From the NCBI GenBank assembly GCA_964510365.1, contig CAZEAR010000001.1, positions 1 through 42,117 on the forward strand: a DNA stretch of 42,117 nucleotides, in the 5' to 3' direction. The DNA comes from an uncultured Dehalococcoidales bacterium. Its GTDB lineage: Bacteria > Chloroflexota > Dehalococcoidia > GIF9 > UBA5629. This document shows, in pieces, positions 13,195 to 13,575 of the stretch. A program made the translations under genes and the position numbers. Position 1 is the first letter of the stretch. The number at the start of each line of letters is the position of its first letter. Under the pieces are notes generated by a model, which saw nothing but the letters and a program-made list of their open reading frames with translations, did no database searches and was not told the origin of the DNA.

Positions 13195-13210
13195 AGGACC
13201 TTACAAGTAG
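13195..13210. repeat. Left arm of an inverted repeat bounding the noncoding island (AGGACCTTACAAGTAG)
   Basis: The reverse complement of 13559-13575 is AGGACCTTCCCAAGTAG, giving 8 bp + 7 bp of pairing around a small internal mismatch. Confidence 0.7.
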
Positions 13211-13304
13211 AGATAAAAACTGGTAAAAGGGAGCGTGAGTAATTGACGATACAATTGCATTTTGCAGCTAACAAAAATGGCTGCGACAGCTATGATAAAG
13301 CTGT

Positions 13305-13390
13305 TTGCCTAGGATCAGAGAGTCATGGGTTCGAGTCCCATTCAGATCTGAAAGGATTTGATAGCTCAGTGGGTAGAGCTTCTGAGGCAA
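13305..13390 (+). ncRNA. Circularly permuted tRNA-like element: tRNA 3' half, 5-nt linker, tRNA 5' half, with no anticodon loop
   Basis: 13315-19 TCAGA. 13320-24 five-nt variable loop. 13325-41 ATGGG-TTCGAGT-CCCAT (canonical T arm). 13342-48 TCAGATC. T13349. GAAAG linker. 13355-61 GATTTGA (pairs 7/7 with 13342-48, including one T-G). TA. 13364-79 GCTC-AGTGGGTA-GAGC (canonical D arm). T. 13381-85 TCTGA (pairs 5/5 with 13315-19). 13386-90 GGCAA pairs with 13305-09 TTGCC. Confidence 0.7.
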
Positions 13391-13558
13391 TCACATTCTA
13401 AAGGTAGCAAGGTTTAAGCGGAATAGATAGTATGGCTCAGAACCGGCAAGGTAGAATGTGGCAAGGGAGTAAGGCAGTATCTCGAAGCGAAAGCGGAGAG
13501 AATGACCTGAAGCAAGTTAAAGTTTCTCCATTTATGTCCAGGTTACTTTTCAGGCTTC

Positions 13559-13575
13559 CTACTTGGGAAGGTCCT
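13559..13575. repeat. Right arm of the inverted repeat bounding the noncoding island (CTACTTGGGAAGGTCCT)
   Basis: Complementary to 13195-13210. It can alternatively form a local 5-bp hairpin, CTTCC/GGAAG. Confidence 0.7.

Follow-up and report, generated by a model that had tools for sequence, protein, structure and literature searches.

A conserved, structured phage RNA that adjoins DUF6847 genes and the RNA–protein complex it may form

Introduction

What is encoded in an intergenic gap that is bracketed, almost end to end, by an inverted repeat? The gap in question lies in the window analysed here (the whole 42,117-nt stretch of contig CAZEAR010000001.1, assembly GCA_964510365.1, from an uncultured Dehalococcoidales bacterium), between two + strand open reading frames (ORFs), of which the upstream one ends at 13189 and the downstream one starts at 13599. 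The original prediction correctly recognized the intergenic gap but counted 410 nt, where 13190–13598 amounts to 409 nt. It offered two explanations, namely an RNA of about 380 nt that encloses a tRNA-like module and is closed by the pairing of its two ends, or a small non-autonomous mobile element. Its remark that the window has no other long noncoding stretch is plausible; small ORFs occupy the other large region poor in ORFs, 24285–25676.

In the present analysis, the segment 13195–13575 (+ strand) was found to encode one member of a conserved structured noncoding RNA family, and the closing stem of this RNA, P1, is the inverted repeat. Members of the family adjoin genes for DUF6847 proteins, and a complex of the two products is proposed.

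A conserved RNA beside DUF6847 genes

The gene on the 5' side of the RNA is the following.

12680–13189, + strand: partner gene, 169-aa DUF6847 (PF20935)/DIP1984-like protein, real start at 12680

A large protein collection contained 1371 homologues of this upstream protein, and an alignment of 28 of them (A2) was used to fetch 80 metagenome loci, 80 IMG/VR loci and 16 loci from metagenome-assembled genomes (MAGs). The conserved noncoding element was first recognized by reading the DNA 3' of the gene, and profile hidden Markov models (HMMs) were then built for its 5' and 3' parts. With nhmmer, the 3' domain of the RNA was found in 147 fetched loci, always on the strand of the gene. Where the sequence downstream of the gene reached 450 nt or more (128 distinct loci), the RNA lay within 900 nt downstream of the DUF6847 gene in 113, immediately upstream of it in seven and further downstream in four; the last four gave no HMM match, and two of them were recovered by covariance model (CM) R1. 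DUF6847 was the sole protein family conserved within ±2.5 kb of the RNA.

The 71 distinct full-length RNAs measured 264–450 nt (median 335), and the window RNA 381 nt from P1 to P1. The latter scored 38.4 bits with the 5' and 97.7 bits with the 3' nhmmer anchor, and 64.5 and 36.9 bits with CM R1. It has all the features of the family, i.e. P1, a pseudoknot of helices P2 and P6, P3 with a loop pseudoknot, an AAGG tract and a co-oriented DUF6847 neighbour.

No Rfam match at gathering threshold was obtained in the window, and nine related loci matched no Rfam family at E≤0.1. A permissive scan (E≤10, 13100–13700) returned one meaningful match, to YrlA, which is discussed below; the matches to small nucleolar and long noncoding RNAs were noise. 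The family is uncatalogued, with no match to any Rfam 15 family. No description of the RNA was found in the literature, with the 10,006 unnamed candidates of PMC10690425 left uncompared.

Beside more distant DUF6847 homologues (25–32% identical, MAG contigs L198–L207), the adjacent DNA gave no profile or CM match. The same plan was seen there by eye, consisting of a closing stem (for example GAAGCGGCGAC/GUCGCCGCUUC in L199), a purine-rich 5' junction and a CAAGG/CACGA/CAAGA tract with a period of 7–8 nt. Two of these distant relatives lie at the following positions.

L199, 3365–3700: distant-relative RNA
L200, 3505–3900: distant-relative RNA

One contig of this group, L203, also carries a SAM riboswitch at 1441–1549, which suggests a chromosomal setting.

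Wherever the RNA does not abut the DUF6847 stop codon, a conserved GTTCTTTGA(A/C)A motif was found 4–12 nt upstream of P1 (L110, L095, L116, L156, L056, L118, L139, L130, L050, L117, L060, L085, L121, L098 with three tandem copies, and the distant L205–L207). This motif could serve the RNA as a promoter element. It is not present in the window.

The arrangement in the window could also mean that the RNA acts in cis within the DUF6847 transcript, whether as a stabilizer or processing signal in the 3' untranslated region, as an autoregulatory operator bound by DUF6847, or as a leader of the downstream genes. The RNA adjoins the gene in the same orientation, the stop codon and P1 lie too close together in the window for a promoter to fit, and no intrinsic terminator follows the RNA, the only terminator-like match overlapping P6/P1. 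Such a role is difficult to reconcile with an RNA that occurs on either side of the gene, with downstream genes that are not conserved, and with the GTTCTTTGA(A/C)A motif preceding the RNA where the two are separated, where it may mark a promoter of its own. In addition, three pseudoknots and 330 nt far exceed the needs of known phage operators. A cis-acting element is therefore considered rather unlikely.

Fold of the conserved core

The inverted repeat consists of AGGACCTTACAAGTAG at 13195–13210 and CTACTTGGGAAGGTCCT at 13559–13575, which form 8 bp (13195–13202/13568–13575) and 7 bp (13204–13210/13559–13565) with an internal loop of A versus GG between them, as originally described (8 + 7 bp around a small mismatch). 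By itself this repeat was unremarkable: 12 inverted pairs of similar size were counted in the 601 nt examined, including one with 9 perfect bp. The expected number of chance matches of the 16-mer in the window was 0.12. Folding of the single sequence was better than that of shuffles on both strands (z −3.9 on +, z −4.5 on −). The repeat is lifted above chance by the comparison of 59 homologous RNAs, in which both partners have changed at each of the 15 pairs of P1.

This comparison was based on alignment A3, which holds 59 cores with the variable middle removed; PK1 and P2b are aligned poorly by MAFFT and were therefore tested directly. The resulting structure of the window RNA is as follows.

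13195–13213, + strand: P1 5' strand (P1a 13195–13202, bulged A 13203, P1b 13204–13210, invariant GA 13212–13213)
13214–13219, + strand: junction J1/2, nearly invariant UAAAAA of the AGAGAUAAAAAC motif (A3 columns 22–31)
13220–13233, + strand: P2 5' strand (P2a CUGG 13220–13223, P2b AAA.GGAG 13226–13233)
13234–13236, + strand: PK1 5' strand CGU, pairing with P3 loop ACG 13246–13248
13239–13245/13252–13258, + strand: P3 hairpin, loop ACGAUA
13259–13304, + strand: first part of the variable linker, with hairpins 13264–13268/13280–13284 and 13286–13291/13299–13304 (minimum free energy and constrained folds)
13392–13477, + strand: AAGG-repeat tract, AAGG starting at 13401, 13409, 13448, 13463 and 13471, with degenerate units between
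13480–13501, + strand: P4 (13480–13483/13498–13501), GNRA-capped tip GCGAAAGC at 13487–13494
13506–13518, + strand: P6 5' strand (P6a CCUGAA 13506–13511, P6b AAGUU 13514–13518)
13526–13541, + strand: P2 3' strand (P2b CUCC.UUU 13526–13533, P2a CCAG 13538–13541), inside the P6 loop
13542–13554, + strand: P6 3' strand (P6b 13542 and 13545–13548, P6a UUCAGG 13549–13554)
13555–13575, + strand: invariant CUUC junction 13555–13558 and P1 3' strand (P1b 13559–13565, P1a 13568–13575)

Standard pairs occupied 82.1% of the cells of the proposed structure, compared with 65.1±0.5% in column shuffles (0/500 shuffles reached this value) and 36–50% with slid partners, and both-side changes were counted in 611 cells versus 207 in shuffles. 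RNAalifold, given the alignment alone, returned P1, P3 and P6, and 24 of its 30 pairs were compensatory; the comparative fold thus recovered the closing stem unprompted. It added an invariant G-C/A-U extension of P1 (13212–13/13557–58) that reaches into GGCUUCC. The corresponding DNA motif, GGCTTCC, which holds the CUUC junction, was invariant or nearly so in A3.

All 15 pairs of P1 covary (85% of cells paired), as do all seven pairs of P3 and all four of P2a (CUGG/CCAG, 93% paired), while P6 was 95% paired with both-side changes in seven of 11 pairs. P2b joins the 5' AAAGGAAG region to a U/C-rich segment inside the P6 loop (for example AAAGUGGAG/CUCCACUUU and AAACAGAG/CUCUGUUU), and its native duplexes scored 14.6 against 11.1±0.3 with foreign partners. 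In PK1, the three bases 5' of P3 were Watson-Crick complementary to the first three bases of the P3 loop in 53 of 59 sequences, compared with 3.5 of 59 for foreign triplets, and five pair sets were used (CGU/ACG 25, CGC/GCG 23, GGC/GCC 3, GGU/ACC 1, CGG/CCG 1). The CUC/GAG core of P4 covaries at its middle pair (UA 23, CG 14, GC 7), with 72% of cells paired. Since P2 and P6 cross, the core is pseudoknotted. G-U combinations exceeded A-C combinations in the helices (159 versus 75) and all matches were co-oriented with the gene, which fits the + strand as the RNA strand.

Two pairings were tried and dropped. A 5' GGGAGC/3' GCUUCC helix fails since the 5' strand is variable and has UUUCUCC as its covarying partner, whereas no variation is seen in GGCUUCC. 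The terminator-like hairpin CUUCC/GGAAG at the 3' end is not conserved in those relatives that carry GGGCGG.

These results bear on several claims made from the single sequence. The RNA of about 380 nt with its ends paired in a closing stem, and with a tRNA-like module inside, is borne out, the closing stem by the covariation of P1. The strings proposed for internal helices are all present at their positions (CCTGAA 13506–11, TTCAGG 13549–54, GCGAAAGC 13487–94, GGAGAGA 13495–501, TTTCTCC 13523–29), and so are three GCAAGG motifs at 13407, 13446 and 13461, which are units of the periodic AAGG array. The CCTGAA/TTCAGG helix was confirmed as P6a, also by the RNAalifold prediction of P6, and the proposed GNRA hairpin is the cap that P4 carries in the window. 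The GGAGAGA/TTTCTCC helix did not hold, since UUUCUCC pairs with the 5' AAAGGGAG region (P2b) and GAG with the upstream CUC (P4).

The second explanation offered for the repeat was a non-autonomous mobile element resembling a miniature inverted-repeat transposable element, whose ends would be the terminal inverted repeats, flanked by a TA/TAT target duplication. The bracketing position of the repeat and the TA-rich flanks speak for it. On the other side, the window holds a single copy, and the element keeps one position and strand beside one gene family at more than 120 loci. The arms differ between loci and still remain complementary, with G-U tolerated, and the flanks are not conserved; the covariation of the arms with G-U pairs therefore points to selection on RNA and not on transposase binding sites. 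A search by blastn with the gap, and with 10 kb around it, gave no match in 50,697 GenBank phages, so no further copy of the island was found there. This part of the original prediction was abandoned, and a mobile element is regarded as extremely unlikely.

The variable linker and its tRNA-like module

The match to YrlA (RF02553) spans 13304–13394 and reaches 36.7 bits (E 2.1e-6), where the gathering score is 69. Its alignment defines a circularly permuted tRNA-like module with the following parts.

13305–13390, + strand: permuted tRNA-like, YrlA-type module
13305–13310/13385–13390: outer stem
13316–13319/13381–13384: anticodon-stem-like helix
13320–13324: variable loop
13325–13341: T arm, loop UUCGAGU
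13342–13348/13355–13361: acceptor-like stem of 7 bp, closed by UGAAAG
13362–13363: U8 A9
13364–13379: D arm, loop AGUGGGUA

All nucleotides of the tRNA elbow can be read in this module (G18 G19, U54 U55 C56, G53-C61, G15/C48 and U8/A14). A loop closes the acceptor-like stem, and an anticodon loop is missing. ARAGORN called no tRNA and no transfer-messenger RNA (tmRNA) genes in the window, which excludes a conventional or permuted tmRNA. An ordinary tRNA (RF00005) was also rejected, as it scored 16.7 bits (E 1.4) and the sequence has neither a cloverleaf in normal order nor free acceptor ends.

The module is not a feature of the family. It is absent from the closest relatives (L033, L032 and L159; protein identity 71–73%, RNAs of 308–323 nt), in which the rest of the RNA is conserved, and the first part of the linker (13259–13304) is likewise not conserved across the family. 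ARAGORN called a tRNA in the linker of 17 of the 71 RNAs, and YrlA-type modules below threshold were found at the same site in at least five others (L136, L086, L047, L187, L122). In other linkers the insert is reduced to a T arm or to a hairpin resembling an anticodon arm, plain hairpins occur as well, and about one third of the members have no tRNA-derived piece by crude criteria. Read from these sequences, the linker would be a permissive site at which tRNA-derived modules come and go.

Some further observations were made on these inserts. Hairpins with the anticodon-like heptaloop CUUNAAA (CUUGAAA, CUUCAAA, CUUAAAA) occur in nine of the 71 RNAs, compared with 0.27 expected (L039, L112, L070, L075, L064, L124, L127, L093 and L071; also seen in L198 and L001); some lie within complete tRNAs, and some would give anticodons reading UGA or UAA. 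Many of the tRNAs called beside or inside the RNA (L115, L123, L135, L085, L068, L153 and others) stand out by uncommon A34 anticodons (aat, act, att, atg, aac, agg) or by anomalous loop sizes, flagged '???', and such tRNAs may be non-decoding. A 'closed acceptor + D arm' pattern, when searched in IMG/VR, mostly retrieved ordinary tRNAs.

The presence of the module raises the question of whether the RNA is a bona fide bacterial Y RNA, in which the terminal stem would bind Ro60/Rsr supplied by the host and the module would tether factors such as PNPase. The module has the YrlA order (RF02553, E 2e-6), the two ends of Y RNAs also form a stem, and phages are known to carry YrlA RNAs (PMC4201824). 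A true YrlA (69.7 bits, at gathering) is present in another IMG/VR phage contig (L006, IMGVR_UViG_3300028590_000016, 6096–6224), where it lies inside a phage tRNA array and is unrelated to the DUF6847 family. For the window RNA, the score is about half the gathering score and the model positions of the Ro-binding helix are deleted in the alignment. A Pfam scan of 40 window ORFs found no TROVE or RtcB domain, and the conserved neighbour is DUF6847 and not Rsr. The RNA measures 381 nt compared with 80–130 nt for Y RNAs, and the closest relatives lack the module while keeping the rest. The comparison with Y RNAs in the original prediction thus stands for the tRNA-like module and falls for the Ro-binding helix, the TROVE gene and the length; a genuine Y RNA is very unlikely.

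The linker also recalls the GOLLD and ROOL RNAs, and the RNA could accordingly work without a dedicated protein, for example by assembling itself into a scaffold or cage, or by delivering or protecting the tRNAs of the linker, with DUF6847 a mere neighbour. It is phage-borne, large and pseudoknotted, and the tRNAs found by ARAGORN sit in a variable linker, as they do in GOLLD (bioRxiv 10.1101/2024.12.08.627333). Neither family was matched in Rfam, whether at E≤10 (13100–13700), at gathering (window) or at E≤0.1 (nine loci), and the RNA has about half the size of GOLLD/ROOL or less. Its linkage to DUF6847 is near-universal in either gene order, and about one third of the members have no tRNA-derived piece to carry. 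These results make an RNA of this kind improbable.

The AAGG tract

In the segment that separates the linker from P4, AAGG was counted 393 times over the 71 RNAs, compared with 83±8.5 in shuffles (4.7-fold), whereas CCTT occurs only 27 times. The spacing of the copies peaks at 7–8, 15–16 and 22–23 nt, indicating a period of about 7.5 nt. The tract is the most likely docking site for several copies of DUF6847, as judged from sequence comparison, because a periodic tract is the feature that survives longest as the protein diverges. In this phage only, a perfect 9-bp inverted repeat (13392–13400/13452–13460, CACATTCTA/TAGAATGTG) encloses part of the tract, and the hairpin could mask some of its AAGG units. 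DNA iterons of a replication origin were considered for the repeats and found unlikely, given the strand-specific RNA covariation and the excess of G-U over A-C.

An RNA with such a tract could also be the antitoxin of a type III toxin–antitoxin or abortive-infection-like pair, in which a repeat RNA neutralizes a DUF6847 protein that is harmful when free. The pair forms a self-contained two-component module, patchily distributed in phages and MAG contigs of many phyla, and a protein of about 170 aa is combined with an RNA that has 6–10 repeated short motifs. Similarity of the ToxN/AbiQ type was not detected, nor was any PADLOC model or Pfam match of that kind. The repeats are 7–8-nt units in a large folded RNA and not tandem units of ~36 nt, the RNA lies mostly 3' of the gene with no terminator between, and nothing points to toxicity. 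Such a pair is quite unlikely.

The DUF6847 protein

The window protein matched Pfam DUF6847 with E 4e-7 and NCBIfam DIP1984_fam with E 4e-11, the latter below cutoff. The protein family comprises 562 clusters at 50% identity, all of them single-domain proteins of about 170 aa. A confident AlphaFold2 (AF2) model (pLDDT 88) consists of four long helices and small beta hairpins. In fold searches it came closest to a crAss-like phage protein that is itself uncharacterised (TM 0.63), and only weak matches to Avd-like and HEPN proteins were obtained. The sequence search of the PDB was empty, PADLOC gave no match for DUF6847, and tblastn of the protein against cultured phages and plasmids found no homologue. 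No literature on DUF6847 was found, and DIP1984 and septicolysin occur only as annotation labels.

The proposed RNA–protein complex

Taken from comparative sequence data, the reading that we favour, with moderate confidence, is that the RNA and DUF6847 form a dedicated RNA–protein complex, in which the RNA is a trans-acting partner. A protein partner is suggested because the linkage to DUF6847 is near-universal and holds in either gene order. In this window, the RNA would probably be made by read-through of the DUF6847 mRNA, because P1 starts 5 nt 3' of the stop codon. The pseudoknotted core would hold both ends of the RNA together, and several copies of DUF6847 would dock on the periodic AAGG tract.

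The tRNA-shaped module would be a lineage-specific addition that presents a tRNA elbow to host factors recognizing tRNA, candidates being RNase P, modification enzymes and tRNA-targeting nucleases. Cleavage of the RNase P type in the loop 13349–13354 is possible, because the closed acceptor of 7 bp resembles that of the Mycobacterium smegmatis YrlA, which is cut by RNase P; P1 and P2 would then hold the two pieces together.

Several results weigh against such a complex. When loci were sought from the RNA side, by a pattern scan with GAACTTNNNAGGCTTCC, the matches were mostly due to chance, and nine of 120 were true RNA loci. Five of these nine, from what was a weak scan, had a DUF6847 gene; of the other four, two had no room to show the gene, one had borderline room and one was a partial match only. 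Fold searches of the PDB and BFVD with the DUF6847 model gave no informative neighbour, and the protein is not basic (pI 6.4 in the window, family median 7.8). The adjacency would, on its own, also be compatible with a role in cis or with an RNA antitoxin, and the AAGG tract could bind a host factor or 16S rRNA instead.

The proposed complex can be carried one step further, to an undescribed class of phage ribonucleoprotein, with this RNA as a founding example, in which the AAGG tract loads DUF6847 copies and the linker displays interchangeable tRNA-shaped modules that engage the tRNA machinery of the host. We put this forward tentatively, as an idea that is possible though doubtful. If true, the modules, be they ordinary, circularly permuted or truncated tRNA shapes, would, for example, lure away defence nucleases that target tRNA, or would recruit RNase P, CCA-adding or modification enzymes, and permuted tRNA mimics of the YrlA type would arise outside Ro60 systems.

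Few RNAs are known that are large, contain several pseudoknots and covary strongly, and such RNAs have historically proved to be ribozymes, ribonucleoprotein scaffolds or self-assembling cages. The present family is widespread in uncultivated phages (well over 100 contigs) and has a single candidate protein partner, which provides the first functional lead for the DUF6847/DIP1984 proteins annotated as "septicolysin". It also provides, at a single site, a series of natural inserts that range over tRNAs, permuted tRNAs and tRNA fragments, including a tRNA mimic of the YrlA type in a context without Ro60.

Phage context of the locus

The recognisable genes of the window are those of a tailed-phage genome.

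23410–24285 and 25676–27136: terminase small and large subunits
17423–19873: lambda-O-like replication protein, DnaB and RusA
window gene: capsid-like protein
window genes: exonucleases and HNH endonuclease

Genes of a nonulosonic-acid-type sugar pathway were found at both contig ends (172–2508 and 37608–41512). They comprise a GFO_IDH_MocA oxidoreductase, a DegT aminotransferase, a GNAT protein with a SHOCT motif, a PseB-like Polysacc_synt_2 protein, NeuB, HIT and a CMP-sugar cytidylyltransferase. The presence of this pathway at both ends suggests that the genome is circularly permuted and that the phage carries a cluster for glycan modification. Closer to the RNA, the ORF directly 5' of the DUF6847 gene (12307–12732) had a weak PADLOC match to PD-Lambda-5_A (E 4e-4), and a 60-aa ORF resembling a CxxC zinc ribbon lies at 13846–14028, two genes 3' of the DUF6847 gene.

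Comparison with known systems

In ToxIN, a type III toxin–antitoxin system, one protein of about 170 aa is likewise paired with one adjoining repeat RNA on mobile elements. The present pair differs from it in the size of the repeat unit, the gene order and the protein family, and had no PADLOC match.

Proteins of the TRAP/HutP type are beta-rich rings that bind periodic triplet repeats (GAG/UAG every 5–7 nt) in mRNA leaders controlling attenuation. The AAGG motifs recur every 7–8 nt and are similar in being short purine motifs at a fixed period, which by analogy suggests wrapping around an oligomeric protein. Beta-rich rings are unrelated to the helical DUF6847 model, and the RNAs bound by them are attenuation leaders.

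The likeness to YrlA lies in the order of T arm, closed acceptor-like stem and D arm, joined through the position of the anticodon stem, in the pairing of the 5' and 3' ends of the RNA, and in the acceptor-like stem, which has 7 bp as in M. smegmatis YrlA, where it is cleaved by RNase P (PMC4201824). In YrlA RNAs, the helix that binds Ro60/Rsr carries the 5' strand motif GNCGAAN0-1G beside the tRNA-like domain (PMC4201824). The window RNA reaches half the gathering score, has neither this motif nor an rsr/TROVE neighbour, and is about three times longer, its module being an optional insert in a larger RNA.

GOLLD and ROOL, large ornate RNAs of phages and prophages, are also phage-encoded and multi-pseudoknotted, with a conserved core and a variable linker able to hold tRNAs. 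They measure ~580–800 nt, compared with ~335 nt here, there is no match in sequence or structure, and they form RNA-only cages with no known protein partner, whereas the present RNA has a neighbouring gene and a periodic AAGG tract.

The OLE RNA with its proteins OapA, OapB and OapC is unrelated in sequence, fold, hosts and partners, and is chromosomal in extremophiles of the Bacillota and not phage-borne. It resembles the present system in being a large structured bacterial RNA that is adjoined by the genes of its partner proteins, and it was from such an arrangement that the OLE complex was first inferred.

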